From assembly GCF_964213995.1 (NCBI RefSeq), contig NC_135825.1:12214001-12278000 (forward strand): 64,000 nucleotides of DNA. The letters are read 5' to 3'. A program made the translations under genes and the position numbers. The notes below the pieces were generated by a model. The model ran no database searches. It saw only the letters and a program-made list of their open reading frames with translations, and was not told where the DNA came from. This stretch comes from Mustelus asterias. Taxonomy: Eukaryota. Positions 17,601 to 55,600 of this stretch are shown in pieces (position 1 is the first letter of the stretch; the number at the start of each line of letters is the position of its first letter).

Positions 17601-20600
17601 CTTTAGCATTATGAATTTTGTCACCGTTTAGAAAATAGTCCATGCCTCTATTCTTTTTTCCAAAGTGTACAACCTCGCACTTGCCCACGTTGAATTTCAT
17701 CAGCCACTTCTTGGACCACTCTCCTAAACTGTCTAAATCTTTCTGCAGCCTCCCCACCTCCTCAATACTACCTGCCCCTCCACCTATCTTTGTATCATCG
17801 GCAAACTTGGCCAGAATGCTCCCAGTCCCGTCATCTAGATCGTTAATATATAAAGAGAACAGCTGTGGCCCCAACACTGAACCCTGCGGGACACCACTTG
17901 TCACCGGTTGCCATTCTGAGAAAGAACCTTTTATCCCAACTCTCTGCCTTCTGTCTGACAGCCAATCGTCAATCCATGTTAGTACCTTGCCTCGAATACC
18001 ATGGGCCCTTATTTTACTCAGCAGTCTCCCGTGAGGCACCTTGTCAAAGGCCTTTTGGAAGTCAAGATAGATAACATCCATTGGCTCTCCTTGGTCTAAC
18101 CTATTTGTTATCTCTTCAAAGAACTCTAACAGGTTTGTCAGGCACGACCTCCCCTTACTAAATCCATGCTGACTTGTCTTAATCCGACCCTGCACTTCCA
18201 AGAATTTAGAAATCTCATCCTTAACGATGGATTCTAGAATTTTGCCAACAACTGAGGTTAGGCTAATTGGCCTATAATTTTCCATCTTTTTTCTTGTTCC
18301 CTTCTTGAACAGTGGGGTTACAACAGCGATTTTCCAATCCTCTGGGACTTTCCCTGACTCCAGTGACTTTTGAAAGATCATAACTAACGCCTCCACTATT
18401 TCTTCAGCTATCTCCTTTAGAACTCTAGGATGTAGCCCATCTGGGCCCGGAGATTTATCAATTTTCAGACCTTTTAGTTTCTCTAGCACTTTCTCCTTTG
18501 TGATGGCAACCATATTCAACTCTGCCCCCTGACTTTCCTGAATTGTTGGGATATTACTCATGTCTTCTACTGTGAAGACTGACGCAAAGTACTTATTAAG
18601 TTCCTCAGCTATTTCCTTGTCTCCCATCACTAGATTACCAGCGTCATTTTGGAGCGGCCCAATGTCTACTTTTTGCTTTATTTGAAAGAAGCACAAACTG
18701 ACACATTGCGGATACATCTGGATGTTGGGAGTTTGACTGGCTTCCCAACATATTGTCAATTTCTGTGTATTTAACCCCCTCTGTGCTCCCCCACCCACCC
18801 CCACAGCCCCACCATTCAGCGCTAAACCAACAAGGTACAATTACTACCAACTGGCTGCTCACTTCACTTTGTTAATGTCTGACGATTGGATTGATCTGGA
18901 CTGTAAAAATCTGACAGTGTGATATTTAAGACATTTCAGAGACAGGAAAATATTCTGAGCATCGCGGGTAATGTCTTTCACAATATCCTGCAGTTAAAGG
19001 AATTGTTTGTCTGATTATGTTTGAAGTTCTTGATCAGAATGTTGGACAGGCCACGAATTGAGTTTGTGTCACAAGAGTCGGATTTCCAGATCTCTGCCCT
19101 CTAGCTGCCAGACTCTGCATTGCTGCAGAGCCTCGGGATATCGGAGCTGTCAATGTTTCCTTGTGGATAAAACATGGATCAGACATTTCAGTAATAAAGA
19201 AAATCATTCAGAATAATGTACCGTAAGATATTTGCAGCTCCACGGTTACCTTTGGATGTAAGTCAGGTATATCAATTCCACAGCGATACCATCCTGCATC
19301 TCCTGAGCGAAGATCCTCCATCGTAACAGCAAATATTCCTTGTGCCTTGTTATCTGTGATCGACATTCTCCCTCGCCGTCCATCTGGATCATCCGTTCTC
19401 ACTAAATATGAGCACTGTTCAGTCCAACCGTGACACCAATATTTCACGTTTTGTTTGTATTTCCCTTTATAATTGCAATTTATTGTGATCGATCTTCCCA
19501 CAATTCCTGTGACTTTCTTTTCTGCCCACAATGCACCTGAAACTGAGGAGACAACATTTCAGCAATTGACCAAGTAAATAACTGCTTCATACAGAGAGAA
19601 ACATTTTAATAAGATTTACCACTGTGTACAGAGGAAACTCTCCAATACCTGTATTCATCATTCTCTTTCTAGTTTGTGATCAATGAAAACATGAATATAG
19701 AGCCGTGCTGTCAGTGCCAAAGTACTTCACTGACAATGATTTCTTGTTATGTACAGTGGCCATTGTTATTGTGTCACCTTGTCACTCAAGCTTTGCACTG
19801 GCGCCTCTGAATGGGTGGATTGCAGGGTCAGGTCCCACTCCAGAGACTGGAGTATAAAATCTACACTAACATTCCAGTGTAATACTGAGGGACAAGATGG
19901 CTCAGATTTTCCTCCCTCAGTCATGTTCAAAGAGCTCGGTGATGCCATTCAGGTGAAAGGTTCATCTGACACCCAGGTCTGGAGGTTCCCTGTCATGGAG
20001 AAAATCCCGGGAATGGCTGGAATTTCAAAGTCCTAAGAGTGGGAGCGGGACTGGAATCAGGCTGCATACACAATTCGTGGAGGCGAATTGTCATTAAATT
20101 CAACACCTGCCTTGATTTAAGTGAGATTTTGGATGAACAGGAGTGTGGAATCCGGTGTGTGCAGATTAGAATAGTTAAGAGAAGGTTTGAACTTGGTGGA
20201 TTCTTATGGACAGCCAGGGTATGCCTTCTGGACAGGAAAGTTACTCTTTGGAAGAGGAAAGTTACTCTTTGGGAGGGGAAAGTTACTCTTTGAGGGGGGA
20301 AAGTTCCTCTTTGTGGGGAGAAATTTATTCTTTGGGACAAACTCTGGTGAGTGGTCAGGGCCAGAGTGATTATCTGGTTGTTTCAATTATTCTATTTATT
20401 AACCATGGCGCTGGGGCACAGAAACAGGCCTTGTGTCCAGCTCACCTCCGGGCTGAGCAGCCTGTGGATTTGTTCCTGGGTCACCCGTCTCGATTCATTT
20501 TTTAATGCCTTTCCTGACTCAATGAACACGACCCAGGGATGAGATGAGGAGATTGTTTTCACTCAAGGTGTTGGGAATCTTTGGAATTCTCCACCGCAGA

Positions 20601-30670: not shown

Positions 30671-31575
30671 CAGGGAATTTCCCATTCTGAGGTTATACAG
30701 GCACATTGTTCCATCCTGGGAAAGTGGAATATATCATTGGAGCGACTGGTATCCAGTGCATGGAAAAATCATGTTGCCAATTCCTTCCAGAATTTGTTCA
30801 TCTTTAAATTGACAAAGATTAAGATAAGAATATGAAACAAGAAATGTAGACATTTAATCAGCAAACAGATCAATTATTCTCCAGATGTCGATATACAACC
30901 TGAAGGTCACAGCCACTGTTTGGATTTTGATTCCTCCACTAAATTTTTGATCCAAATCATGTTGGTTGGTTTTTGTTTTTTTATTAGTGTCACAAGTCGG
31001 CTTACATTAACACTGCAATGAAATTACTGAGAAAATCCCCCAGTCGCCACACTCCGGCGCCAGTTCGGGTCACTGAGCGAGAATTCAGCATGGCCAATGC
31101 ACCCGAACCAACACAACTTTCAGACTTCATTTAATAATGAAAAAACATACTATTATGTAGATTTGTTAAAAGAAATGTTCAAAGCTGGATGAGGATTGAA
31201 TATTTGACCAGGATGCAAAATTGCTTCGATGTAGATGGAATCCCAGAATCTTCATTTTCCCACTTTGGTCCAACTGTGAGAATTGGATTCATTGAGTGAC
31301 TGGAAAAGAAAATCATCAGATTCATTGAGATTGGGAGAACAATGCATCAATTGACATTTCAGTCTTGAACAGAATTCTGGAAATGGCAACAATTTGGGGC
31401 AGTTTCGAGATCACATTGATCGCCCTTTGCATGTGCGCTGGGAAACACTCGTTTGGATCCTTCATGAAGACACGTAACCTTATTTACCCACAGAAAACCA
31501 ATGTTCCCCTGCTGCTGTGATTATGGACAATTGACTGGAGAAATTGATTGCTCTGTCCATGTTTCTAAAAATATT

Positions 31576-31671: not shown

Positions 31672-34600
31672 CTGTCCAGAAACAGTCAGCCCTGTTGCCT
31701 TTTTATAGCCTTTCCAATTTCCTTCCTTATTCTTTTGCTGACAGTTTAATAAGATTGGATGGTAAGATGGAAGGGTTCTTCCATGGATGGGTTACACAGG
31801 AACACAGTAACAAGAGCAGCTCATTCAGCCCCTCGAGCCTGTCACACCAACCTGCAACTCCACACAGACACTCACCCAAGACCAAAATCGAACCTGGGTC
31901 CCTGTCTTATCTAATCCCAGCTGTGAGAATTCTAATTGGCCCAGCATCCACAGATTTTAGGATGGATTAGTTCCAGATTTCCATGACTAGCTGTGTGAAA
32001 ATAATGCTTCCTAATTTTACTCCTAAGTATCTAAGCCCTCACTTTTGGGTTATGGCCCCGTGTACTCCATCTCCCCACTGGGCAAAGAGTTTCTCTGTAC
32101 CCACCATACTGAATCCCATAAAAACTTCAATCACCGATCCCAGCAACCTCCAAGTGTGAGGAAATGCAGCAAATTTGTGCAATCTCTGCACATAATTTAC
32201 TCCATTCTTCCCTGTATCATTCTGATGTATTGATATTGCAGAGATGATGGTTTAGTGTCAATGTCACTGGGCTAGTAATCCAGAGGTTGATAGTAAAGTG
32301 CTGGGAACATGATTTCAACATAGTAGCTGGTGGAATATAAATGCAATGAATTCAATTTCAATTGATGAATGAATCTGGAATTGAAAATCTGACCAATGGT
32401 GACCAGGAAGCTTGTCATCAATTGCTGTAAAAACCCATCTGGTTGGTTGGGGATGGTGATAAACGGTCATAAATTGTCATAAATCCTCACTGATATCCGT
32501 CAGGGAAGGATATCTGTTTTCCTGATGCAGTCTGACCTCCATGTGACCCCAGACCCACCGTGATGTGTTTGATTCCTAACTGTCTTCTGAAATGGCTGAG
32601 CAAGCCACTCGGATCTGGCAATTAGGGATGGGCAACAATTCTGCCCTTGCCAGTGACGTCCACATCCCGTGAAATAGAACAAAAAGACACTGCATCCCTT
32701 CCGAGGCCAATATTTTGTTCCTGTGATTCGGACACCATCCAGAACAAACAATTCAACATTGCATTATAAAATCCTCCAGTGATAAAGTGAAACTTCCATT
32801 TATGAGTGGAAGTTATCCTGGACAAAGTCAGCTGATCACTTCAGGATGGATGCAGCTGCAACAAGGATCAGGAACATTGACACAATCGAAAACAAACAGT
32901 CCCCTTGATCTTTCCTACATAACATCAGCAACACTTCAAAACCAAACCATATAAAATGTAAGATACTTTGGGTGGACTTTCCACCCAAGTTCCTCTGGTG
33001 GGGTGAGGGAGGGAGGAGGGCGGAGGGGGCTGGACAAGAGCAGAAGATCTCGCGAGAGCCCCCAATCATGTTATTACTTTGATGGGAAGTCTCTTTGTGA
33101 TTGTCCCCAGCTCCCATCACTGACATCACAGGATTCCCAACGTTGAACAACATAATCAATTTGCATGTCATTATCAAGACCTGGCACCTGATCAACCCCC
33201 GCTCCCCCCACACCCCCCAACCCTCACTTCCACTGTTCGATGATCCACTCACATCAGTGTGAGGGCACACTGGTGTGCATTATGATTGATGGCCATGGCA
33301 TGTACCAGGAGGAAGTCTCACAACACCAGGTTAAAGTCCAACAGGTTTATTTGGTAGCACAAGCCACTAACTTTTGGAGCGCTGCCCCTTCATCAGGAGA
33401 GTGGGAGTTCTGTTCACAAACAGGGCATATAAAGAGACAAACTCAATTTACAAAATAATTGTTGGAATGGGAGTCTTTACAGATAATCAAGTCTTAAAGG
33501 TACAGACAAGGTGAGTGGAGAGAGGGTTAAGCACAGGTTAAAGTGATGTGTATTGTCTCCAGCCAGGACCACCAGTTACACGGTACATACTCTTGCAACT
33601 CGGCCAACGTTGTCTACCTGATACGCTGCAGGAAAGGATGTTCCGAGGCATGGTACATTGGGGAGACCATGCAGACACGATGACAACGGATGAATGAACA
33701 ATGCTCAACAATTGCCAGGTAAGAGTGTTCTCTTCCTGTTGGGGAGCACTTCAGCAGTCACAGGCATTCGGCCTCTGATCTTCGGGTAAGCGCTCTCCAA
33801 GACGGCCTACATTACACACGACAGCGCAGAGTCGCTGAGCACAGACTGGTAGCCAAGTTCCGCATACAGGAGAACGGCCTCAACCGGGATCTTGGGTTCA
33901 TGTCACACTATCTGTAACCCCCATGACTTGCCTGGGCTTGCAAAATCTCACTAACTGTCCTGGCTGGAGACAATACATATCTCTTTAACCTGTGCTTAAC
34001 CCTCTCTCCACTCACATTGTCTGTACCTTTAACACTTGATTACCTGTAAAATCTCACATTCCAACCATTATTTTGTAAATTGAGTTTGTCTCTTTATATG
34101 TCCTGTTTGTGAACAGAACTCCCACCTCCCTGATGAAGGGGCAGCGCTCCGAAGACCAGTGTCTTGTGCTACCAAATAAACCTGTCAGACTTTAAGCTAG
34201 TGTTGTGAGATTCCTTACTGTGTTTACCCCAGTCCAACGCCCTCATCTCCACAGTATGTACCAGGAGGGCAGACCCACTGCAGATGCTCAGGTGAGTGCA
34301 TCGCTCAAGTTACTATCAAGGAGCAGTGTCCATTCAGTGCCAGGGGTCAGTGCCAGGGTCAGTGTCCATGCAGTGCCAGGGGTCAGTGCCAGTGACAGCG
34401 TCCATGCAGTGCCGGGGTCAGTGCCAGGGTCAGTGTCCATGCAGTGCCAGGGGTCAGTGCCAGCGTCAGTGTCCATGCAGTGCCAGGGGTCAGTGCCAGT
34501 GACAGCGTCCATGCAGTGCCAGGGGTCAGTGCCAGGGTCAGTGTCCATGCAGTGCCAGGGGTCAGTGCCAGGGTCAGTGTCCATGCAGTGCCAGGGGTCA

Positions 34601-37600
34601 GTGCCAGTGACAGCGTCCATGCAGTGCCAGGGGTCAGTGCCAGGGTCAGTGTCCATTCAGTGCCAGGGGTCAGTGCCAGTGTCAGTGTCCATGCAGTGCC
34701 AGGGGTCACAACTGGGGCAGCGTCCATGCAGTGTCAGGGGTCAGTGCCAGAGGCAGTGTCGGGGGGCAGGGCGGGGGTGTGGAGGGGGGGGGGGGCGGTG
34801 CATGAGGTTGTGCAAGGGGAGGGGGGTTCCATTTTCACTTTTGTGCATCAAGTTGACTTTCAAAAATATCATTTTGATCTTGAAGAAACTGAAATTTCTG
34901 GTGGGATGGGCAGTATCCTGTCCCTTCAACATTTATACACATATTCTTCACCATATTTCTTCACCGCCTCTTTTCCTGCCCCTGCCACACTTGGAAATGA
35001 AAGGTAAAATTCCCCCCTGTGTTTAAACCTGTGGACATTGACATCAATGCAAGTTTCTCTGCACAATATCTGTGATAATTACAAAGTGCTCAGAATGATT
35101 GTTGTAAAGTCCATAATCCTCACCTGAGATTTTCTCGTGAACCATGTGACCGAAATCACACAAATCACCAGGAGGGTAAAGAGCCCCCAGCGAATCACAT
35201 TCCAGATGAAGAAACTGAGCAAACTGGAAGAAATACAGAATGATTTGAAGGGAATGAGGCAGCTTCGTGTTTGAAACATGAATCTCCTCTTTACACTGTG
35301 ACCTATTGTAGCAGCATCGCACAGACAAGGCACGTTAGCTGGAGCAATCAACTAAAGTTTCACTGATCAACTTCATGATCATTAGATACAGATCAAATGG
35401 AGCTGGTTTCATTAACTTTCCTCAGTATATCTGGAATGCTGAGTAAAAGCTTAGAAGTAAGAATGTTATGAATTGACTGGTCATTGGGACAGAAACATTG
35501 TCTGGTGCAACATAACATTGGTGAGATATCTGTTCAGTGAGTAAGAAACTTCCAATAACATCATCCCACACTGTTCCAAAGTAGAATCATATTCCACTCA
35601 ATATTAACTCTGCTCCTCTCTTCACAGATGCTGCCGGACCTGCTGAGTTTTCCCAGCACTTTCTGTTTTCATCATCCCACAATTCCCTGGTGCACCTCCT
35701 GACAGGAAATTCGGAACCAGCCGGAAGCAGACGGCCTCAGTTTGGGAACAATGTATTAAACTGGGCAACTGAGAAGGAGAAGATGACAGTGAATGCAATG
35801 TTCCTGTCAGCGATACTCCAGAACACACCGGGTTAAGGGAATCTGGTATCGCTGGAGTGTGACAAACACAACTCCATGAGATTGGGTTCACGGTGAAGTG
35901 ATTAACATGAATAATGAAAACTGCACCATCTAAGGTGTGGCAAACAGAGAAAGCTCACTTCTTAGTCTGAATTTCCACTGACAGAAACAGCAACTTTGTT
36001 AGGAAGCTAACACAATAGCATTATGTAAACACAGCTACCGGGTGGGATGGTGAGCCCGGGTTGGGGGACCACAGGAATGCTGATGGGGATTCAATATCTG
36101 GCAAAACCTGGAAGGCGCAGGCGACTTCATCAGATTCACGGCCATAGTGGGCAAGAACCTGATTTACATACATTTTAATATATTTCCATATCATTAAAGA
36201 CCCCCCCACTCCCCAGATATTGAGCCCTCGCTGTGTTTTCAAACCGGGGCAACGTGACATCACATTGGTGCATTTTACATCAGGTTCACCTGGACATGAT
36301 GGGGAACCCCCTTCCTGGGCAAGAGGGATATGGTCAGGCAGTGGCCTGGCAATGCCCTCTGGCACTCTCCCTTGGCGCAGGTTGGCACTGCCAAGTTGGC
36401 ACCATGCCACCCCAACATTGCCAACCTGGTAGTGCCAACCTGTACCAGTGGCAGTTCCGGGGTGGACCTCAGTGGGAGTCTGATGGGGGAGGGGTTATTC
36501 ATTTACAAGTGAGGGTGGGCCGGAGCGGACAGGGGAGCTGGAGCAGCCGTTTGTGGGAAGGGGCTGGGTTTGTCGGCAATGGCTGTGTGGGTGGAGGGTT
36601 GGAGGGAAGGGCTCCAATGTTCGGGGGGAAGGGGGGTGGTGCCAGCACTGACTGCTGGAGGGGGGGAAAGGTCTGATATTCGGGGGAGGGGTTTGGTGTC
36701 AGCACTGACTGCTGAGGGGTGATGTGGGGGGAGAATTGCTGGCTCATAATAGGAGGATGCCCCGACTCTGACCGGGGTGTGGTGGGATTTGGGGGGAGCC
36801 CCTGAGAGCTCTGTGGTGGGTGGGGGGGAGGTTACATTTAGTTTTGATTGGGCCGCCATGTTTGTGCACTGTCAGCTTACTGCAGCCAGGATTTGCTGGT
36901 GTATCGAGGCCCCGCCCCCTACATGACGATGTGAAGCACGCCCAGCTGTTTTTTTTGTGACAGAGTGTGGTAAGTTCTGGAGAGAAAGACAACCTGCTTC
37001 GAGCCAGAACCAACAGTTTTCAGTAAGATTTCCCTAATATTGTGTTTTATGTTTACGGGGGCTGTTTACAGATTCAGCTTTATTCTGGAGGCAGTCGGTG
37101 TATCAGTAAAACATTCAGTTCAGATGCTGGGAGAGCAGGATAATGGCTCATTTTAGCCATGGAGGGGGGAAGCTAAGCAAAAAATGACTGTTGTTTCCGG
37201 TGAGAAAACCGACAGGTGTCTCTCCAGAGAAACAGGTTAGATTTCTGTGCAGATCTTTGACTGAGAGAGGAAACCGGAGCACACGGAGGAAACTCACGTA
37301 GGTTCAGAGAATGTGCAGACTCCAGGCAGACAGTCACCCAAGGCCAGAATTGAACTTGGATCCCTCGTGCTGCGAGGCAGCACTGCTAACCACAGTGCCT
37401 CTGTGTCACCTGTTGTCATCCTATTGTTAGATCAAAATCCAGGAATTTCTTACCACTCACTTTTCGTCCATGCCACACCAATCTGACCTGTGTCACACAA
37501 CTGCAGTTCTCCCCTGATCTGATGATCACTGACACTGGAACCATTTCTGGGACCTGTGGACATTCACTCCAAGGATTTTCAAATCCTCCACATACCCCAG

Positions 37601-40600
37601 TATCCTCCCATTTATTATCTCACCATTTGCTTTGTTTGACCTGCTCAAATGCATCACCTCACACTTCTCTGGGTTGAATTCCATTTGCCACTTTTCTGCC
37701 CACCTGACCAGTCCATTGATATCTTCCTGCAACCGATAGCAATCCTCCTCGCTATCTACTGCATTAGTAATTTTCATTACATTCCATCTAAATCATTAAT
37801 ATATGCCAGAAAAAACAGGGGACCGAGCACTGAGCATTGGAAACAGCCTTCCAGTCACAAAAACAGCCATCAACAATCATCCTTTGTTTCCTGCCACAAT
37901 TAATTCTTGGCCATTTGTTTACGGAAGTGGGTTTTGAAATTATACAGCACTTTTCATGGCCTTTGGATGGCCTAAAGAATTTTATAATCTGGGAAGTATT
38001 TTTAAACAACCGCCACTGTTGTGATATGGGAGATGTGGCAACCAATTTGCACACAGCAAAATCTCAGAAACAGCAGTGAACTTTGACCAGATCAATATTG
38101 GCCATTTCTTCAGAGATCTCCTTGTCTGCTTTTTCTGTAGATAAGAAGTGACCTGCTGCGTATTTCCAGCAGCTTTTTCATCATTTTGATGTTTAGTTGG
38201 TATTTTTTCCTCATCACCATTGTAACCTCCGTGTTTACATTGGACAACAATTTCTGCTCTTTCTGTGTGTCCCAACTATGTTAGGGGTAGTGGGTTTTAA
38301 CAGAAAAAGAAAATACTTGGTTTGCACACGTAGATTCAAGCAAGCACAAACCAGGTTTTATTGATGAGCTGCTCTCTGCACTGCATCAAGTACAAAACTG
38401 ACAGTCACACAGCAGCCTGAGCACGCACCCTAATGACATCACATCAAATCAACCCATTTTAAAACTCACACCTTCATGATGAAGCGAACACAACAACATC
38501 CCGCCAAGGTTTCTGATCTGAGAGTTATTGAAAAATGATGCCCAGTCTCCCCGATCGTCAGAGACTGGACATATGACCCAAGATGTGTGTCAGGACCCTG
38601 CAGATGACCCAACATGATGATCTCCATGGGAATTGCCTGGGACATTGGAACTTCCAACGGACAATTCTGCTGTACCCTGGGTCCCTCTGTGAAAATCTTC
38701 AGCTCTGGGTAAGAGTCAGACACTTCAAACAATTCCATGGGGCTTAACTGGATAGTTACCCAGGAAATGTTAGACTGAAAGAATCAAGTTTAATTCCTGG
38801 GTAATCACAGAACTGACCCCCGAATAATCACACTGACCCCCTGGAGTCCCCCCAATCCTCTGATTAACCCCCTGACACACCAACTATCACCCCACACTCC
38901 GCCAATTCCACCTGATCTTGTGACTATGCCACAACCTGAGCCAATCCGATTATTCCCTCTGACTACCCTTTGCACCCACCACTTGATTACCCAATGTCCA
39001 AATCTGATTAGCCCCCAAACCAGGCTACCCCTGCCAACCTGACCCAATTGCCACACTATTCATCTACCACCTCATCAACCTACAACCTCACCCACCTGCA
39101 ACCCTACCCTCCTGTCACTTCATCAACAGACTACCTCACCCAACTGCCACTCTACCCACCTCACACGCTTGTGACCTCACTCATCTGTTTTCTCACCCAC
39201 CTACCATCCTTGCCTCCGACTAGCAACACATCTATACACCTGTCTCCCTATCCATCTTTCACCCGACCCACCTGTGCTCCTACAGAGTTCCGATGGAGTT
39301 CTCCGAGGGACACTGCGCTCCACAGTTCTGGAGAATCTGGAGTCGGAAGATCAGGCAAGAAATGTGGAGCTGAGTCGAGGGTGGAAAGCTTCAAGCGGAG
39401 TGGCAATCCAACAATGATTGCTGCTCTGTGACTGGCCCAGGACAATAAATGACATCCATTCTCACGCCAAAGTTGTTAAAGAGGATTTAATCACTCACAC
39501 AGAAGCCATGTCATTTAAACACTAACAATAAAAACAGCGTACCTTTCAGCAAATTTGGAGTTTGGAATTGAGGAATGTGTTGGCGATACTGTTAAAATTT
39601 CACAAGAATTTTCAGGTCCGACTGAAAGAAGGAAACAACATTCAGATCAGCCTCATTTTCATTGTCGTTAACTGAGAGAGTCACATTGTCAAGTGGCACC
39701 TCAACCTGAGGGAGAACCACGTTGAGGGAGCGCCTCTTCTTGGGATGTGGGTGTCGCTGTTTAGGCCAGCAATTATTGCCCATCCCTAATTGCCCTTGAG
39801 AAGGTGGTCATGAGATGCCTCTTGAACCGATGCAGTCCATGTGGTGTAGGTACATCCACTGTGCAGTGAGGGAGGGAGCACCCATCGCATCTGCGCCAGT
39901 CAAAAACAAACCACCTGACTATTCCAAACCCAGTTTCCAGCACTTGGCCCATAGCTCTGTGTGCCTTGGCATCACGAGTGCACATCTAAATAATTCTTAA
40001 ATGTTATGAGGGTCTGTAAGACACCAGGAAAACTTGCCTATTCCTCCTGGAAGAGGGCCATGAAATCATTTACATTTAGCTCAAAGGATGCATGGATCAG
40101 CAGTTCAACCAGACAATAGCACCGTCAACAGCAGAGCGCAATCTCCGTGCTGTACAGTGATATCAACCCCTTTCTCGGAAGGAGAATTTGAACTCACAAT
40201 CCATTGGTTTCAGAAATCAGGCTGCTACCAACTGAGCCCCTTCTGACACTGACATATTTGAATATTAAACATTCAAACTGGTTATAGTCCTCATTAATTC
40301 AGGACTATCGTTAGTGTTTATGTTAACACTGAGTAATTCAGTGTTTAGAACATGGAATTCTGAGATTTTGAGCAGCATTTTGTGATGATAGAATTTTTCG
40401 GCAAAGAAGGAAATTTGGTCCATTGCCCTCCATCGCTATGAAAGAATTTGCCATTTAGAATCAGAGAATCCATGCAGCGCACAAGGAGGCCATTTGGCCC
40501 ATCGAGTCTACAACGACACTCCCATTGTTGTGTCTTTTCCCCAAATCCTCCTAAATGTCTGCTCCTTTTTTGCTTCCCTTGTGAAAGCTGTTATTGATTC

Positions 40601-43600
40601 TGTTTCTAACGCAATCCATATCTTAACAATCATTTGCATCAATAAAATTCTCCCAATTTCTCCCGCTGTCCTTGTTGTGATGATCTTAACTGGATTCTCT
40701 CGAGTATTCACTCACTTACTACTGGAAATAATTAGTCTCAATTTATCTTATCAAAGCTTCAAATAATTTTGAATAGATTTAGCAGACTATTTCCTTCTAT
40801 TCTAATGATTCTTTGCCGGTGTTAGCTGTTGGGAGCACTCTTGTATCTGCAGCCACAAGGATCTGTGTTCTCGCCCTACTCTAGGAATCAAAAATCAAAG
40901 CTGAAACTCCTGTGCAGTACTGAGGAAGTGCTGCACTGTTGGAGGTGCTGCCTTTCGGATGGGATGTTGAACTGAGTCCCCAATCTGCCTGCTCTATGGG
41001 CGGCATGGTGGCACAGTGGTTGGCACTGTTGCCTCACAGCGCCAGAGACCCGGGTTCAAATCTGGCCTTGCGTGACTGTCTGTGTGGAATTTGCACATTC
41101 TCCCCGTGTCTGCGTGGGTTTCCTCCGGGCACTCTGGTTTCCTCCCTCAGTCCAAAGATGTGCGGGTAGGTGGATTCGCCAAGCTAAATTGCCCCTTAGT
41201 GTCAGGGGGAACTAGCTGGGGTAAATGCATGGGATTATGGGGATAAGGCCTGGGTGGGATTGACGTTGGCGGAGACTCGATGCGTCAAATGGTCTCCTTC
41301 TGCACTGTAAGATTCTATGGATTCTATGAAACTATGGATGTATAAGATCGATGGCACTTGATCTCCTGAAGAAAAACAGAAGCGTTATCCGAAATCACCC
41401 GGCGATATTTATCCCTCAATCAAAAACAGGTTATCAGTTCATTATTTTGAGTTTGCTGTGTGTAAATTGGCTGCTGTGTTTCCTGCCTCACAACAGTGAC
41501 AGTGCTTCAAAAAGCATTTCATTGGTTGTAAAGCGCTTCGAGAAGTCAGATGACTGTGAAAATAAATGGAAGACATTCTTTCATTTTGTAAGTGAGACCT
41601 CTTAAGATGCTATCATTTCACATCAACTCTTCAACTCTCTATCCTTACGATTCATCCTAAAGCAAGAGACATCAGCTAAAGATTGTTATTCACAATTTGA
41701 TCTCCAAGAAATGGGAACAGGAATGGTTAATGGAGACCTTGTCAGTCAAGTTCTATTTAATATTAATGGGATTACTGCAACATTTAGACATGTTTGGGGA
41801 ATATTTTATGATCCTGATATTTTCAATCAATATTTTAATCAGTAACTTTGTTCCGAGTTGTTGAGGGACAAAGCAGAGTGAATTTTGTCAGTTGCAGTCA
41901 TTCAGAGAGACATTAGGAACCGAACCAGCAACCAGCTTATTTAGAACTTAGAACATAGAACATAGAACAGTACAGCACAGAACAGGCCCTTCGGCCCACA
42001 ATGTTGTGCCGAGCTTTATCTGAAACCAAGATCAAGCTATCCCACTCCCTATCATCCTGGTGTGCTCCATGTGCCTATCCAATAACCGCTTAAATGTTCC
42101 TAAAGTGTCTGACTCCACTATCACTGCAGGCAGTCCATTCCACACACCAACCACTCTCTGCGTAAAGAACCTACCTCTGGTATCCTTCCTGTGTCTCCCA
42201 CTACGAACCCTATAGTTATGCCCCCTTGTAATAGCTCCATCCACCCGAGGAAATAGTCTTTGAACGTTCACTCGATCTATCCCCTTCATCATTTTATAAA
42301 CTTCTATTAAGTCTCCCCTCAGCCTCCTCTGCTCCAGAGAGAACAGCCCTAGCTCCCTCAACCTTTCCTCATAAGACCTACCCTCCAAACCAGGCAGCAT
42401 CCTGGTAAATCTCCTCTGCACCCTTTCCAGCGCTTCCACATCCTTCTTATGTGAGGTGACCAGAACTGCACACAATATTCCAAATGTGGTCTCACCAAGG
42501 TCCTGTACAGTTGCAGCATAACCCCACGGCTCTTAAACTCCAACCCCCTGTTAATAAAAGCTAACACACTATAGGCCTTCTTCACAGCTCTATCCACTTG
42601 AGTGGCAACCTTTAGAGATCTGTGGATATGAACCCCAAGATCTCTCTGTTCCTCCACAGTCTTCAGAACCCTACCTTTGGCCCTGTAATCCACATTTAAA
42701 TTAGTCCTACCAAAATGAATCACCTCACATTTATCAGGGTTAAACTCCATTTGCCATTTTTCAGCCCAGCTTTGCATCCTATCTATGTCTCTTTGCAGCC
42801 TACAACAGCCCTCCACCTCATCCACTACTCCACCAATCTTGGTGTCATCAGCAAATTTACTGATCCACCCTTCAGCCCCCTCCTCTAAGTCATTAATAAA
42901 AATCACAAAGAGCAGAGGACCAAGCACTGATCCCTGCGGCACTCCGCTAGCAACCTGCCTCCAATCCGAAAATTTTCCATCCACCACCACCCTCTGTCTT
43001 CGATCAGACAGCCAGTTACCTATCCAATCGGCCAACTTTCCCTCTATCCCACACCTCCTCACTTTCATCATAAGCCGACCATGGGGGACCTTATCAAACG
43101 CCTTACTGAAATCCATGTATATGACATCAACTGCCCTACCTTCATCAACACACTTAGTTACCTCCTCAAAAAATTCTATCAAATTTGTGAGGCACGACTT
43201 GCCCTTGACGAATCCGTGCTGACTATCCCGGATTAATCCGCATCTTTCTAAATGGTCGTAAATCCCATCTCTTAGGACCTTTTCCATCAATTTACCAACC
43301 ACCGAAGTAAGACTAACCGGTCTATAATTACCAGGGTCATTTCTATTCCCTTTCTTAAACAGAGGAACAACATTCGCCATTCTCCAGTCCTCTGGCACCA
43401 TCCCCGTGGACAGAGAGGACCCAAAGATCAAAGCCAAAGGCTCTGCAATTTCATCCCTTGCCTCTCAAAGAATCCTAGGATACATTTCATCAGGCCCAGG
43501 GGACTTTTCGACCTTCAGTTTATTCAAAACTGCCAGGACATCCTCCCTCCGAACATCTATTTCCTCCTATTTCAACTATCACTTACCAACGCTGTTGATC

Positions 43601-46600
43601 TGTGCCACATAACTGCAATTCTCCCCTGATCTGTTGATCACTGACACTGAAACCATTTCACTGGATTTTTCTTCCTGGTGATTTGAGGCTGTGCAGTAAT
43701 ATTGATGATGTTGCTGTGTGAAGGATTGACAATGTAGATCCAGTTTATTGGTGTCAGAGATCTCTGAATCTTCAGACGGGGTCTTTTCATGCCATGTGTA
43801 CTGAATGGGAAGTGATCCCTGGACAGACTCACAGGAGACGGACACTGAGCCCCCAGAACATGAGGCATTTGGTGGTGATAAAAATTTAAGTTCAGGAACA
43901 GACACGGGTTCTGTGGAAAAGACAATCATTAACGGATTTTCACAGTAACTTCATTGCAGTGTTAATGTAAACCTAATTGTGACACTAATTTATAAAAGCT
44001 TTAACAATAAACTTTAAAATTTTAAACTTTAGAATGACCAAAAAATTAAATCGTTTCATAGTCCCAATATTTCTACACCTCATCCAGGGTGTGAGGCGGA
44101 AGGGGAAGTGTTAGAGAGAGAGAGAGTTGGCAGTGGGAGCTTGGCCGAATGCAGGTAGTATCTATTGATTGCTGTCATGAACAGCAGATATTCATGATAG
44201 CAGATTAGTTAGTAACAATCATTGGAGTGTGACCTGAGATAGACTGTGGATGTTTGCTGAGATAACGGAGACTTAAATATCTTTCCAAAAATCTAATCTT
44301 GACCTGAAATCCACCTCCGCTGCCAGTTGGAATTGGGAATTTGGCGCTCAGCCAAATCTCCATTCACAGCAGCGGGACTGGATAATTCCAGCTGCGGACG
44401 AGTTTGGTGAATTCCAGCCATTGTTTGGAGTTGTATTTAACATTTAACAGTAAGTACCGTTTAACACTTAAGTGTGAGTACTGTTTAAAGTCGAGGGCGG
44501 GGTTTTATGGCCTCGAATGAGCGAGACGGAAAATACCGCCCAAGGTCAACACCCTTGAGTCTGCCCCACACCCGCTCCGATACCATGGCGGGCGAGGCAG
44601 TAAAATTCCGACGTACGTATCATCCAAAGGACATGAGCTGGGAGATAGAAGCTATCCACTGGCAGCAACTGGAATAGTTAATTGGGGAAACTGGCTTGAA
44701 CTGGTCTTTTTGTACTGAGTCCCTTTGTTTTTGAACATATAAATTTAGACATTCTCAGTGCAAACAGCACTGGAGTCTGCCTTCAACCGAGTATGGACGT
44801 TTAATGAGCTGAAGGAATTTACTACAGGGGAAGAAGTGAGCTGTTGGTGAGTATCTGGGGAGTATCCCGGAAGTGGGCAAGGTCTATTATCCAGGCATTG
44901 GGAGCAAGGGTGAGGTCCTTGCCAACTTGTTCACCAGGAGAACGGGGTTCAAGGTGCAATAAATCTGACCCCATCTCTCTGGATCATTACTCTTGGCCTC
45001 TGAATTACAATTCCTGCAACATAATCATTGTTCTAACTGCCCTCTAGCTGCCAGACTCTGCACTGCTGCGGAGCCTCGGGATATCGGAGCTGTCAATGTC
45101 TCCTCCCAGGTAAAGCACCGATCAGACATTTCAGTCGAGAGTAATAAAGATAATCACGGAGAACAATGTACCGTCAGATATTTGTAGCTTTACAGGAAAC
45201 ATTGAAAGGAAGCCGGGCTTATCAATACCACAGCTGTACCATCCTGCATCTCCTGAATGAAGATCCTCCATAGTAACAACAAATAATGCTTGTGTCTTGT
45301 GATCTGTGATCGACATTCTCCCTCGCCGTCCATCTGGATCGTCTGATTTTACCAAAACAGAGCACTGACGACTCCAAGTTTTCACATGTGACTGAGACAA
45401 TTTGTCATAGTGACAATCTATAGTGATCGATCTTCCCAAAACTCCTGTTACATTATTTTTTGCCCACAATGCACTTGCAGCTGAAAAGACAACAGGTCAA
45501 AAATTGAACTGAAAATAATTGCTTCATACAACCAGATATATTTCAATAGGATTTACCACTGTGTTCAGAGAAATCTCTCCAATACACCTTCTAATGTAAT
45601 TGGATACTTCCTTGTTTGATATCGTTGGGCACATTGAATATGTGCTTCCGGCGGATTGATAATTAGACAACCATATTGAGATTGTATCCCAAGCCCTTTA
45701 TAAAGCAAGACCCTGAGTGGTTCCATTAATCTTTTAGTCCTGGTTGGGACCTGTTGTGTTCACCACAGGTGTGTGGGAATTCTTTATTTTCATTTTGTAC
45801 AATAGAAGCACGGTTCCTTCACAGCCGGCTCCTCGAGTTATTATATTCTCAAACAGCAATTCTCAGACAGCAGATTGTCTGCTCATGATCACGTTGCTCT
45901 TAGAGGGAGCTTATTGCTCACAAATTGGTGCTGAGCTTCCTACATCACAACAATGGCTCTGAATCAGTTCCAGCATTGACCAGAACGGACTTTAAAACTG
46001 TCCTGAAGATGTGAAAAGTGCAAAATAAATGCAATTCTATTTTTATTCCAATTGCTTCGAGCAACTGATAGAACATAAACCATGAGCAATTCAGACTGAT
46101 GTTAATTTAAAAATTCGTTGTACTTTTTGAAGCGAAAAGAGATATTTACCAATGTTGCTGATTTGTGTTAAATAACTGCAGTCATTCTCTGAAATGTGGA
46201 TCACTGACACTGTAACCATTTCACTGGATTTTTTTCCCTGGTTATTTGAGGCTGTGCAGTAATATTGATGACGTCGCTGTTTGAAGGATTGACAATGTAG
46301 ATCCAGATTATTGGTGTCAGAGATCTTTGAATCTTCAGACGGGGTCTTTTCATACCATGTGTACTGAATGGGAAGTGATCCCTGGACAGACTCACAGGAG
46401 ACGGACACTGAGCCCCCAGAACATGAGGCATTTGGTGGTGATAAAAATCTAAGTTCAGGAACAGACACGGGTTCTGTGGGAAAGAAACAAACATTCAGAA
46501 ACTGACTGAGCATCTAAAAATCAAACACTCTGTGAATTTCAGCTCATCAACCTCTCATTCAGGGTCAGTCATGTTGCAATCTCACCAACACATCCAGCTC

Positions 46601-49600
46601 TCCATTTCTCTCCATCCTCCAAGCAGCCTGAACTACAATGTCTGCTATTATATCAGAACATCGCAGCTCTCCAGATCAAACCATGAACCAGGACCGAAAG
46701 ATTTAAATTTAATGGTGAGTGGATTAGATGAGATTTGGGGCAATGGGTTATTTCACTCGGGGGATGTTGAGGGTCTGGAACTCACTGCCTGGAAGAGTGG
46801 TCGAGGGTGGGAGAGGCGGATAACCTGATCACATTAAACAAAATGGATTAAACTTGAGATGCTGTAACCTACAGAGCTCTGGATCAAGAACTAGATGGTG
46901 GGATTAGATTGGATTGCTTGTTCAGTCAACCCAGTGTGGCACAGTGGCACAGTGATTAGCACTGCAGCCACATAGCACCAGGGACCCGGGTTCAATTCTA
47001 GCATTGGCTGTGTGGTCAGTGTGGAGTTTGCACGTTTTCCCCGTGTCTGCGTGGTTTTCCTCTGGGTGCTTCAGTTTCCTCCCACAACCAAAGATATGCA
47101 GATACCCATGGGGAGGTGATGGCCCAGTGGTGTTATCGCTAGCCTATAAATCCATAATCTCATCTAATGTTCTGGGGACCAGGGTTCGAATCCCGCCATG
47201 GCAGCAGTTGGAATTTGATTTCAATAAAGAAAATCTGGAATTAAGAATCTACTGATCACCATGAAACCATTGTCAGTTATTGGAAAACCCATCTGGTTCA
47301 CTCATGTCCGTTAAAGAAGGAAATCTACCATCCTTTCCTGGTCTGGCCTACATGTGATGCCAGAGCCAAAGCAATGTGGTTAATTCTTGACTGTCCTCTG
47401 AAATGGCCTCGCAAACCTCTCAGGATGGCAATAAATGCCACCCAGCCAGCGATGCCCATGTCCACAAATGAATAAAACAAATACTGGCACCTCCCACCAG
47501 GCACCAGGCAGTGCCAATGTGGGTGGTGCTGGCGGGGGAGTTGGCATTCTGGGGGGTGGGGCCTATTGGGGGCTCAATGTGTTGGGGGGTTTTCAGTGAC
47601 ACTGTGCACTGGGATCAGTGTGAGAAGGAGAGAGGAGGGGGACCAGGGCTGGCTATCTGGGTGGGGGGAGATCGGGGCTGGCCCGGGAGAGCTCTGGTAG
47701 GCCAGTGATTGGATGGTTGTGGGGGGTCGGGATGGCCAGCGATCGGGAGGCTAGCGGTGAGGGGGCCACTGTGCATGCGCCACTCTCCGCAGTGACAGAT
47801 CGGTGTGTGTGCAGTGGCTCACTCAGCACTATACTGCCAGCCTCTCTAGTGGGATTTGGACCCGCTCACCACATTTCAGAGTGAATCAATCTGTGTCGGA
47901 GAATCGTTCTGGTCCGTCCCTTATGTTGTCAAATGAGCCTCTTCAGACACTGGAGTTGCAACACATCAAGGAAGCTGATCAGGAAACGTGTACTCCCTGT
48001 GTTGTGGGATAGCCCGTCAGTGAGTTGCTTGTCTCTGTTCATTCCTTTGTCTTGTGGAGCTCAGGGTCTGTGTGGAGTAGGTAGTTGCTGCTATTGGTGC
48101 TATTGGTCACCTGGGTCCTCATCTGAGGCCCAAAATAAAACAGCCTGAGAACCACCCATGCTGATCTGATAGATACAATCACCAAAATGTAACCCAGAAA
48201 TACACATTACCATCTCTGTTGTGAAAGTCTGTAAATACTGATATAAAAACCTTTCACACAATCAGGCGAGAAATAAGCAGTGAGGTTCCAATGCTCCTTG
48301 GCATCTTTCCCAGTCACTTCTTCAGCCTCCCCCATTGCCTCTGTCTTCTGCCCTTGCTCAGTAACCCGAGCAGCCATAGTTAGATTTCACTAATTGCACT
48401 CACTGAGCGATTAATAGACTGAAATTGATAACCCGTCTCTCACTGGGGGGATTTGATCACACACGGATTGACACATTTAATGTTTCTGATGCGCGACAAT
48501 TAAGCACGTGGAACCAAGGCTTCGATATTGAAGGCTTTTATTGTGTAACAATGGAACTACTAACACGAATACACCAGTTCAGACTGAAGGGGTCCTGCCG
48601 GAGCAGGGGGTCTTATACCTCGCCACCGGAGGCGGGACCCCACTGGAATGTGCCATGATAACTCTTATAACAGGTAAACACCCTAACCCAACAGCATTGT
48701 ACAACCCCCACAGTAACAACACCCTAGCCCAACAGTAACATAATAACAACCCCCAGTGGTGAACCAACGATGGTTCACCACATTCACCCCTCCTTTAAGA
48801 ACAAAAGGTGGCGGGGTGCAAGAAAAAACAGGTCATATAAACAGAATTCACAAGTCCAGACGGTCTGGAGGACCGCACCGACGCTGTGATCTCCTCAACA
48901 CCGGTTGCGAAACCGGAGCAGGTGCTTGCGGTGGCGTTCTTTCCAAAACAACGTCTGGCTGTCCCCTCAAGGACTCCCGGGCCGGTTGGCCCTGGTGAGG
49001 CGATGGTGCAGGGGATCCTGGAACCTTTGGTGGTGGTGGTGGTGGTGATGATGGTCGCGCCGATCTCCCGAGTCTCAGGCAAGCTGTACATGGGAGTAAA
49101 AGTGTTATGCACTGGTCCCGGTGCTGACCGCGCCACGTCTGGGGAAGCAATGAGGAGTAGTGGATTCGTGACTGGGGGAATAGGAGCGACAGGAGTTGCT
49201 ACGTCCCCTGCGGGCGCCAGGTCTCTAATGGAGACAGTGTCCTCTCGCCCGTCAGGATATGCCACATAGGCATACTGAGGGTTGGCGTGGAGGAGTTGGA
49301 CCGGTTCGACCAAGGGGTCGGACCTGCGAGCCCTCACATGTCGCCGCAGAAGGACGGGTCCTGGGTACGTCAACCAGGCTGGCAATGAGGTTCCCGAGGA
49401 CGACTTCCGAGGGAATGAGAACACCCTCTCGTGGGGAGTAGCATTGGTTGCCGTACACAGGAGGGAGCGGATAGAATGGAGTGCCTTTGGAAGGACCTCC
49501 TGCCAACGGGAGACTGGAAGGCCCCTGGATTTCAGTGCCAGTAGGACAGCCTTCCAGACTGTAGCATTCTCCCTTTCCACCTGTCCGTTACCCCTAGGGT

Positions 49601-52600: not shown

Positions 52601-55600
52601 GCTTCGTGTACCTTTTGTTTAGGAGCTCGACGGCACCCGGGTAAGTGGGAGCTGCACGAATGGCGAGATAAATCGTGTCACTTACCCTTGCGTGGAGGAC
52701 CTGGAGTTTATCACTGTCTGTAGTGATAGCTACTGAGGCTGCCAGGTAGTCCTCGAAACACTTCCACCAATGGTCGAATGTGTTAGCTGCACCGACCGCA
52801 CGTGGGTCCAGTGTCAGACGATCCGCTTTTAAGATCTGTTCCATACTCTCTTTTTTTTTGTACAGCTGTGAGTTTTCTGTTACACAATAAAATTGATGCG
52901 CGACAATTAAGCACGTGGAACCAAGGCTTCGATATTGAAGGCTTTTATTGTGTAACAATGGAACTACTAACACGAATACACCAGTTCAGACTGAAGGGGT
53001 CCTGCCGGAGCAGGGGGTCTTATACCTCGCCACCGGAGGCGGGACCCCACTGGAATGTGCCATGATAACTCTTATAACAGGTAAACACCCTAACCCAACA
53101 ACATTGTACAACCCCCACAGTAACAACACCCTAGCCCAACAGTAACATAATAACAACCCCCAGTGGTGAACCAATGATGGTTCACCACAGTTTCCATGGA
53201 GATTTTTATGATCATTTGGAACATTTGGAATATTGTGTCCAATTCTGGTCACCACACAACCAGAAGGATGTGGAGGCTTTGGAGAGAGTGCAGAAAAGGT
53301 TGACCAGGATGTTGCCTGGTATGGAGGGTATTACCTATGAGGAGAGTTTGAATGAGCTGGGATTGTTCTCCCTGGAAAGACAGAGGCTGAGGGGCAACCT
53401 GAGAGAAGTTTATAAAATTATGAGAGGTGTGGATAGAGTGAACAGTTGGAAGCTTTTTCCCAGGGCAGAAATGACAATTAGAAGGACGCACAAGTTCAAG
53501 ATAACGGGGGAAAGATTCAGTGGAGATGTGCGGGAGAACTTTTTTACACAGAGGGTGGTGGGCGCCTGGAATGCACTGCCAAGTGAGGTGGTTGAGGCAC
53601 TTATATTAGCTATATTTAAGGTTTTATCTTGGTAGACGTATGAACAAACAGGGAATAGAGGAATATAAGCATTGGTAAACGTGATCAGCACAGGAAGGGC
53701 CTGTTCCTGTTCTGTCCTGTTCTTTGTTCTTTGTTCTTTGATCCCTTTAAGGGGCTTTCACCATATTGGATTATTTAATTGTTTAATTTGCCAATTTGTT
53801 AACTTTTAATCTGTCAGCTTCACCCTGAATTTTCAGTGGTTTATTTGAAAGAAGCACAAACTGACACATTGCGGATACATCTGGATGTTGGGAGTTTGAC
53901 TGGCTTCCCAACATATTGTCAATTTCTGTGTATTTAACCCCCTCTGTGCTCCCCCACCCACCCCCACAGCCCCACCATTCAGCGCTAAACCAACAAGGTA
54001 CAATTACTACCAACTGGCTGCTCACTTCACTTTGTTAATGTCTGACTATTGGATTGATCTGGACTGTAAAAATCTGACAGTGTGATATTTAAGACATTTC
54101 AGAGACAGGAAAATATTCTGAGCATCGCGGGTAATGTCTTTCACAATATCCTGCAGTTAAAGGAATTGTTTGTCTGATTATGTTTGAAGTTCTTGATCAG
54201 AATGTTGGACAGGCCACGAATTGAGTTTGTGTCACAAGAGTCGGATTTCCAGATCTCTGCCCTCTAGCTGCCAGACTCTGCATTGCTGCAGAGCCTCGGG
54301 ATATCGGAGCTGTCAATGTTTCCTTGTGGATAAAACATGGATCAGACATTTCAGTAATAAAGAAAATCATTCAGAATAATGTACCGTAAGATATTTGCAG
54401 CTCCACGGTTACCTTTGGATCTAAGTCAGGTATATCAATTCCACAGCGATACCATCCTGCATCTCCTGAGCGAAGATCCTCCATCGTAACAGCAAATATT
54501 CCTTGTGCCTTGTTATCTGTGATCGACATTCTCCCTCGCCGTCCATCTGGATCATCCGTTCTCACTAAATATGAGCACTGTTCAGTCCAACCGTGACACC
54601 AATATTTCACGTTTTGTTTGTATTTCCCTTTATAATTGCAATTTATTGTGATCGATCTTCCCACAATTCCTGTGACTTTCTTTTCTGCCCACAATGCACC
54701 TGAAACTGAGGAGACAACATTTCAGCAATTGACCAAGTAAATAACTGCTTCATACAGAGAGAAACATTTTAATAAGATTTACCACTGTGTACAGAGGAAA
54801 CTCTCCAATACCTGTATTCATCATTCTCTTTCTAGTTTGTGATGAATGAAAACATGAATATAGAGCCGTGCTGTCAGTGCCAAAGTACTTCACTGACAAT
54901 GATTTCTTGTTATGTACAGTGGCCATTGTTATTGTGTCACCTTGTCACTCAAGCTTTGCACTGGCGCCTCTGAATGGGTGGATTGCAGGGTCAGGTCCCA
55001 CTCCAGAGACTGGAGTATAAAATCTACACTAACATTCCAGTGTAATACTGAGGGACAAGATGGCTCAGATTTTCCTCCCTCAGTCATGTTCAAAGAGCTC
55101 GGTGATGCCATTCAGGTGAAAGGTTCATCTGACACCCAGGTCTGGAGGTTCCCTGTCATGGAGAAAATCCCGGGAATGGCTGGAATTTCAAAGTCCTAAG
55201 AGTGGGAGCGGGACTGGAATCAGGCTGCATACACGATTCGTGGAGGCGAATTGTCATTAAATTCAACACCTGCCTTGATTTAAGTGAGATTTTGGATGAA
55301 CAGGAGTGTGGAATCCGGTGTGTGCAGATTAGAATAGTTAAGAGAAGGTTTGAACTTGGTGGATTCTTATGGACAGCCAGGGTATGCCTTCTGGACAGGA
55401 AAGTTACTCTTTGGAAGAGGAAAGTTACTCTTTGGGAGGGGAAAATTACTCTTTGAGGGGGGAAAGTTCCTCTTTGTGGGGAGAAATTTATTCTTTGGGA
55501 CAAACTCTGGTGAGTGGTCAGGGCCAGAGTGATTATCTGGTTGTTTCAATTATTCTATTTATTAACCATGGCGCTGGGGCACAGAAACAGGCCTTGTGTC

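Follow-up and report, generated by a model that had tools for sequence, protein, structure and literature searches.

We consider it reasonably probable that a 100-nt exon on the minus strand, at 35223–35124 of the window (by which is meant the whole stretch of 64,000 nucleotides of Mustelus asterias DNA that was analyzed), supplies the membrane anchor of an activating-type modular domain immune-type receptor (MDIR), a type I immunoglobulin-superfamily protein of shark leukocytes, and that Arg476 of this anchor couples the receptor to an ITAM adaptor. The exon, which is the seventh of our gene model and encodes the transmembrane (TM) motif W-N-V-I-R-W, is bordered upstream by a pyrimidine-rich acceptor (TTCCAG) and at its end by the donor CAG/GTGAGG. 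Its translation holds FIW-N-V-I-R-WGLF followed by T-R-K, and is 86% identical to the TM of the Mustelus paralogue P0024. The TM segment claimed for 35124–35223 in the original prediction is thus confirmed as a minus-strand exon with acceptor, donor and hydrophobic translation. The residues N-V-I-R occupy 35201–35190 and include N473 and R476 of the model. In the six-frame translation of the whole window N-x-x-R is found 220 times, and in one instance alone, that of the TM exon, does it lead into 15 stop-free residues with a mean hydropathy of 2.0 or more. An alternative in-frame acceptor is present at 35214, 9 nt into the exon; its use would cost three residues ahead of the motif and leave the motif itself in place.

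Gene structure

The gene was modelled as eight exons, all on the minus strand and with GT-AG sites throughout, their predicted splicing giving an open frame of 513 amino acids. The order of the predicted protein is signal peptide, V-C2-V-C2, stalk, TM and a short tail devoid of Tyr. The coding part of exon 1 (57806–57842, 37 nt), which comprises the ATG and signal peptide, was located by tblastn with P0001 (12/12 residues identical) and ends in phase 1 at a GTGAGT donor. Exon 2 (54385–54705) specifies V1, a CD300/pIgR-like V-set domain with four Cys (Pfam V-set, E 1.6e-11) whose best single-domain PDB matches are CD300LF (2.8e-19) and CD300A (1.2e-15), domains of pIgR also being near. Exon 3 (46150–46473) encodes the C2-type Ig domain C2a (Pfam Ig_3, E 5.4e-7, together with splice sites and phase), exon 4 (45172–45480) a further V-set domain, V2, with three Cys only (Pfam V-set, E 3.6e-10), and exon 5 (43587–43910) the FCRL-like C2-type domain C2b (Pfam Ig_3), for which the best PDB match is FCRL5 (E 7.5e-39 over four stretches). 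V2 is without the first Cys of the second disulfide, and the same variant occurs in 8/125 named homologues, including those of Carcharodon, Stegostoma and Rhincodon. Judging from the sequence, V2 and C2a could be bonded to each other through their spare Cys267 and Cys218, respectively.

Exon 6 (39543–39621), a 79-nt Ser/Thr/Pro-rich stalk entered in phase 1 and left in phase 2, was found through its homologues, the nearest of which are the stalks of ITIM-type paralogues. Each of the four Ig exons ends in phase 1 and the TM exon opens in phase 2; since they would otherwise be out of frame, the stalk exon at 39621–39543 is needed between them. Splicing of C2b straight to the TM exon was tried and ruled out by the resulting frameshift, which brings a stop after a few codons. 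The coding part of exon 8 (31252–31299), a 15-residue tail without Tyr followed by TGA, was recognized by tblastn with P0024 (80% over 15 amino acids), and poly(A) hexamers lie 3' of it (ATTAAA at 31135 and AATAAA at 30985). The predicted cytoplasmic part amounts to about 20 residues, none of them Tyr. The intron between the TM and tail exons also holds a 36-bp minisatellite of 12 copies (34324–34760) and a pair of 260-bp inverted repeats (33310–33569 and 33957–34215).

The NCBI model covering the window (P0002) fuses two tandem copies of the gene and leaves out the exons for stalk, TM and tail. No ITIM-type TM or tail exon was found in the window by tblastn with four ITIM-type C-termini, and the production of opposite forms through alternative splicing of the window gene is therefore unsupported.

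Relationship to the MDIR family

When C2b was used as the query the best 120 of 142 matches were all named shark, ray or chimaera proteins. Two Mustelus asterias models head the list at 100% identity, and skate MDIR5 (P0066, 6.8e-68) and MDIR3 (P0075, 5.0e-66) are also among those listed; domain by domain the window gene is 51–69% identical to these two. The best match of V1 and V2 outside Mustelus is an ITIM-type Carcharodon protein (P0039). In the literature the MDIRs appear as a multigene family with activating and inhibitory members, akin to CD300, TREM and pIgR (PMC3031540). Both features are present here, namely a modular ectodomain combining CD300/pIgR-like V domains with C2-type domains, and a multigene family of cartilaginous fish with activating-type and ITIM-type members. 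By its sequence, the window gene is an MDIR and not a CD300. The CD300-like ectodomain originally proposed holds for the V domains, which match CD300 and pIgR, and fails for the C2 domains, which match FCRL5 as the MDIR design has it. No LRC-type Ig ectodomain (LILR, KIR, GPVI, Fc-alpha-RI or NKp46) appeared among the 53 PDB matches to V1 and the five to C2b.

A single-V shark receptor (P0121–P0125 and the C-terminal part of P0108) carries the Arg class of TM with almost no tail, and is nearer to the CD300 design than the window gene is. The TMs of this subfamily read W-S-[IV]-L-R-W in 5/5 cases, with S at position -3 (counted from the Arg) in each. A single-V profile was run against 1.84 billion representatives, and among the 150 matches listed the 14 which run into a TM were examined: five have W-x-x-x-R-W (R, S, A, D and A at -3, and N in none) and nine are neutral. 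Three of these five are only 27–34% identical to any named shark protein. As sole query, the stalk-TM-tail region of P0118 matched itself alone, while a query of the ESM Atlas with the skate MDIR5 TM region gave two matches at 0.81, which is under the reliable range.

Transmembrane classes in sharks and rays

The 120 listed homologues of C2b, which include some models without any TM and many fused predictions, were sorted by their TMs. An R class was defined by a pattern which is blind to positions -3 and 0 and which was drawn up after the TMs of the family had been seen; it takes in 46 TMs in 45 of the 120 listed proteins, from 17 genera, and Arg occupies position 0 in 46/46. The residue at -3 varies, being K in 18, D in 12, S in six, N in five, T in four and E in one. 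After collapse to distinct R-class segments N stands at -3 in 5/37, and was seen in Mustelus, Stegostoma, Pristiophorus and one Mobula gene. What is conserved is W-x-[VM]-x-R-W, in which the Arg is flanked by invariant Trp residues. An aromatic residue is found at -7 in 41/46, which we take, from its register, to be a possible echo of the Y in the DYT motif of LRC receptors. The first charged residue comes 19–20 positions past the Arg in 42/46.

Most R-class tails have about 19 residues. Among the 120 matches listed an ITIM-like motif occurs in 2/38 terminal R-class tails (both of them Mobula isoform models), as against ITIMs in 51/53 proteins with a neutral terminal TM (52 plus P0039), a contrast drawn between related sequences and not between independent samples. 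P0039 of Carcharodon combines an ITIM tail with a neutral TM (at residue 481) bearing a Gly-to-Arg change near its outer end; it is possibly a dual-function form, or else a sequencing or model error.

Going by these counts, the signature of the family is the Arg and not N-x-x-R, and R-class TMs make up the usual second type of TM in the sharks and rays sampled. The prediction of an activating, adaptor-coupled receptor accordingly stands as to its type, which is indicated by the buried Arg, the Tyr-free tail and an ITIM-bearing near-twin, and falls as to the N of NxxR, which is shared by 5/46 TMs and is not a feature of the family. Nor is the joining of an LRC-style TM to a CD300-like ectodomain a special pairing: besides being the regular arrangement in sharks and rays, NxxR TMs on non-LRC ectodomains have been published from Xenopus, where they occur on FCRL-like and SLAM-like receptors (PMC2413239, PMC4536121, PMC6557307).

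Proposed coupling to an adaptor

According to the mechanism which we propose, the receptor would be unable to signal alone, and Arg476 would contact, within the membrane, the two Asp residues of a dimeric ITAM adaptor, FcR-gamma or its relative CD3-zeta being the most likely. Binding of ligand would then set off Src/Syk signalling in opposition to the ITIM twin, whose ligand would be identical or closely similar. The working residue would be the Arg, while position -3 would need only to be polar.

By analogy with mammalian receptors, FcR-gamma or CD3-zeta is the likeliest partner, in preference to DAP12, because those partners of Fc-gamma which bear a basic TM residue have an Arg toward the N-terminal end of the TM and the type I partners of DAP12 a more central Lys. 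Thus Fc-alpha-RI carries its Arg at TM position 3, and type I partners of DAP12 have their Lys at positions 7–12 (PMC1440944). In the shark TMs, the distance of 19–20 residues from the Arg to the first charge in 42/46 would place the Arg at about position 3–6 of a helix of 20–23 residues; hydropathy windows alone allow anything from position 3 to 11. The basic residue itself counts for much: exchange of K for R reduced DAP12 assembly to 15%, and swapping of Arg and Lys is reported to lower assembly sharply. The flanking residues carry little weight for DAP12 and DAP10 and more for Fc-alpha-RI, a polyleucine version of which kept about 11% (PMC1440944). Surface expression of Xenopus XFL2, which has an NxxR TM, requires FcR-gamma (PMC2413239). 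Adaptor-independent surface expression, together with a lack of R-dependent association, had been offered as an observation that would disprove coupling; it is a weak test, as FcR-gamma is not needed for Fc-alpha-R, OSCAR or Xenopus XFL1.7 to appear at the surface (PMC2413239). Teleosts are said to have the full set of adaptors (PMC4536121). A literature search, to which most subscription papers were closed, returned no report of a shark FcR-gamma.

The Arg might have other uses. It could serve as an anchor, in trafficking or retention, or in contact with a co-receptor or with the twin, the protein then being a non-signalling decoy which takes ligand away from the ITIM form. We hold this to be unlikely. 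The invariant Trp residues beside the Arg are typical of the membrane interface and W-x-V-x-R-W departs from the LRC consensus, both of which would suit a decoy, as would the fact that skate MDIR5, of the same TM class, is reportedly without activating or inhibitory motifs; but an invariant Arg on the outer side, joined to a varying stalk and confined to ITIM-free receptors, is what adaptor-coupled receptors show in mammals and Xenopus. Less likely again is that the window copy is not made as modelled, being a silent duplicate, the source of a longer or secreted product spliced past the TM exon, or a duplicate of the assembly. Its unit is repeated at 99.2–99.7% identity, at least five near-identical units are present in the NCBI models, in which the TM exon is skipped, and a retrotransposon and LINEs lie in the introns. 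Such a reading has nevertheless to contend with eight open exons with GT-AG borders, a stop where the paralogues stop with poly(A) hexamers next to it, and two copies distinguished by point changes and a 1.8-kb LINE, and an assembly duplicate would in any case change the number of copies and not the nature of the TM exon.

The least likely of the three alternatives retains an activating receptor and has it signal through DAP10 or DAP12, the hydrophobic residues ahead of the motif entering the membrane so that the Arg comes to lie in the middle of the helix. The best hydropathy window of 23 residues does put the Arg at position 11, NKG2D pairs its Arg with DAP10, and CD300 proteins use DAP12, DAP10 or FcR-gamma (PMC1440944, PMC7247439). 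Against this, 17 mostly apolar residues lead from the Arg to the cytosolic T-R-K, a spacing which is kept in the family; the basic residue of type I DAP12 partners is Lys (PMC1440944); and many relatives carry a second charge (K, D or E) at -3, which suits the membrane surface better than its core. We therefore prefer coupling of Arg476, near the outer end of the helix, to FcR-gamma or CD3-zeta.

Comparison with other receptors

Skate MDIR5 (P0066) has the same class of TM (W-K-V-G-R-W) and a short Tyr-free tail, while skate MDIR3 (P0075) has a neutral TM and three ITIMs. The window gene differs from the skate MDIRs in having N and not K at -3, in its V-C2-V-C2 order with a three-Cys second V domain, and in its recent ITIM twin at 98.7% identity.

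The XFL receptors of Xenopus (TM1) resemble the window gene in their NxxR-type TM, non-LRC ectodomain with FCRL-like C2 domains, short tail and pairing with ITIM forms (PMC2413239). However, TM1 and tail are on one exon in XFL and on two in the window gene (35223–35124 and 31299–31252), the N is conserved in the TMs of XFL and not in the shark R class, and the published description of XFL, so far as its accessible part goes, has no CD300-like V domains (PMC2413239). With the mammalian LRC activating receptors (LILRA, Fc-alpha-RI, GPVI, NKp46, OSCAR) the window gene shares an Arg at the outer end of the TM and an N at -3. LRC TMs are characterized by a DYT motif and by acidic residues at the C-terminal end (PMC6557307); unlike these, the window TM has S-F-F-I-W and not DYT before the N, a basic T-R-K after the helix, and Trp at -4 and +1. 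In sum, the window protein has N-x-x-R at the N-terminal end of its TM but departs from the NxxR class in three features: the N is not conserved among its relatives, the DYT motif and acidic end are missing or partial (only the aromatic residue at -7 agrees), and TM and tail are on separate exons. By analogy we infer that the shark TM works like those of the NxxR class.

The likeness to CD300/CMRF35 lies in the four-Cys V domain (V1; V2 has three) and in the paired activating/inhibitory design. CD300 proteins have one V domain (PMC7247439), in contrast to the four Ig domains, two of them C2, of the window protein. Mouse LMIR8/CLM-6, a member of the CD300 group, is coupled to FcR-gamma through a TM bearing Lys (PMC5974347). 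We found no description of the TMs of cartilaginous-fish MDIRs, of shark adaptors or of this TM motif in the literature searched, which left out most subscription journals.

The predicted ITIM twin and the probable origin of the activating form

An ITIM-bearing paired paralogue, which the original prediction had proposed to look for in the cluster, is predicted in the form of the last unit of P0001. Residues 13–464 of our model differ from this unit at 6/452 positions (two in Ig domains and four in the stalk), so that ectodomain and stalk are 98.7% identical between the window gene and its paralogue, after which P0001 runs on into a neutral TM and two ITIMs. Since P0001 is a fused computational model, this ITIM partner is itself a prediction. 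Going by these sequences the window gene is likely to be the activating member of a paired receptor.

The activating form was probably made from the inhibitory lineage by tail swapping or recombination, as far as can be judged from sequence comparison. The stalk of the window gene is best matched by P0001, P0085 and P0039, all of them ITIM-type proteins (of Mustelus and Carcharodon), and its TM and tail by P0024, an R-class gene. The inhibitory lineage would have contributed the 5' part through the stalk, and an activating gene the TM and tail, the two being joined by unequal recombination between 39543 and 35223. Swaps of this kind would be easy, because both types of TM exon follow the stalk in the same register. 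Between the stalk and TM exons sits a relic of another C2 exon, 64 bp of its 3' end (37484–37547, minus strand), which lies outside the model and behind a LINE fragment; it was found by tblastn and is 90.6% identical in DNA to C2b. No remnant of a donor stalk was found between this relic and the TM exon.

In a quick tree built from 94 membrane-proximal C2 domains (107 columns, with many weak forks) the window C2b is sister to that of the ITIM unit of P0001 (SH-aLRT 96). The R and neutral classes interleave by lineage in this tree, with 26 changes of label against a mean of 30.8 when labels were shuffled, and 12 changes are forced by well-supported branches. Such interleaving within lineages suggests that swapping or homogenization is routine in the MDIR family.

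Tandem copies and repeats

The window contains two tandem receptor copies and repeats only. Exons 1–6 of the second copy (2588–22679, minus strand) were recognized by self-BLAST at 99.2–99.7% identity; its frame is open, with three nucleotide differences over the six exons and two amino acid differences in 464, and its TM exon is expected about 1.7 kb to the left of the window. P0001 and P0002 are the NCBI models LOC144511684 and LOC144511685, in which several tandem genes are fused; together they hold at least five near-identical V-C2-V-C2 units (three in P0001 and two in P0002).

Intron 2 of both copies contains an LTR retrotransposon on the minus strand (52985–48798 and 16030–11843) with a stop-free frame of 1396 codons, which by eye looks Ty3/gypsy-like. 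Its four LTRs (52894–53189, 48487–48782, 15939–16234 and 11532–11827) differ by 2–3/296 nt, and the element is therefore young. A LINE-type reverse-transcriptase insertion of about 1.8 kb is present at 16880–18673 in the left copy only, and a second LINE begins at 43582, directly past the donor of C2b.

Significance

Paired activating and inhibitory receptors are a familiar design, and the known logic of such pairs is unchanged by this gene. It is conceivable, though on balance doubtful, that W-x-V-x-R-W and the NxxR TM of the LRC and of Xenopus FCRL/SLAM receptors go back to one ancient module for docking FcR-gamma/zeta, already borne by CD300/pIgR-like ectodomains when cartilaginous fishes diverged from bony fishes. 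On this reading the N would have been ancestral and relaxed in sharks, and every lineage of sharks and rays would have exchanged the module repeatedly for the ITIM exons, the window gene being a very recent instance. A single base change leads from N to D, K, S or T, and among the six states seen at -3 it is N that has the smallest total distance to the others. Were this so, skate MDIR5 would be an overlooked activating receptor.

The reason for the conservation of N in NxxR is described as unclear (PMC6557307). If the Arg docks FcR-gamma or zeta, the states found at -3 in sharks (K, D, S, T, N and E) would constitute a natural mutagenesis series for this question. The annotation of the locus can meanwhile be corrected, as the NCBI model fuses two genes and drops the TM exon. 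Finally, a pair of receptors which differ at 6/452 ectodomain residues would offer a ready system for approaching the ligand of the MDIRs and the question of whether activating twins evolve as a counter to pathogen mimicry.
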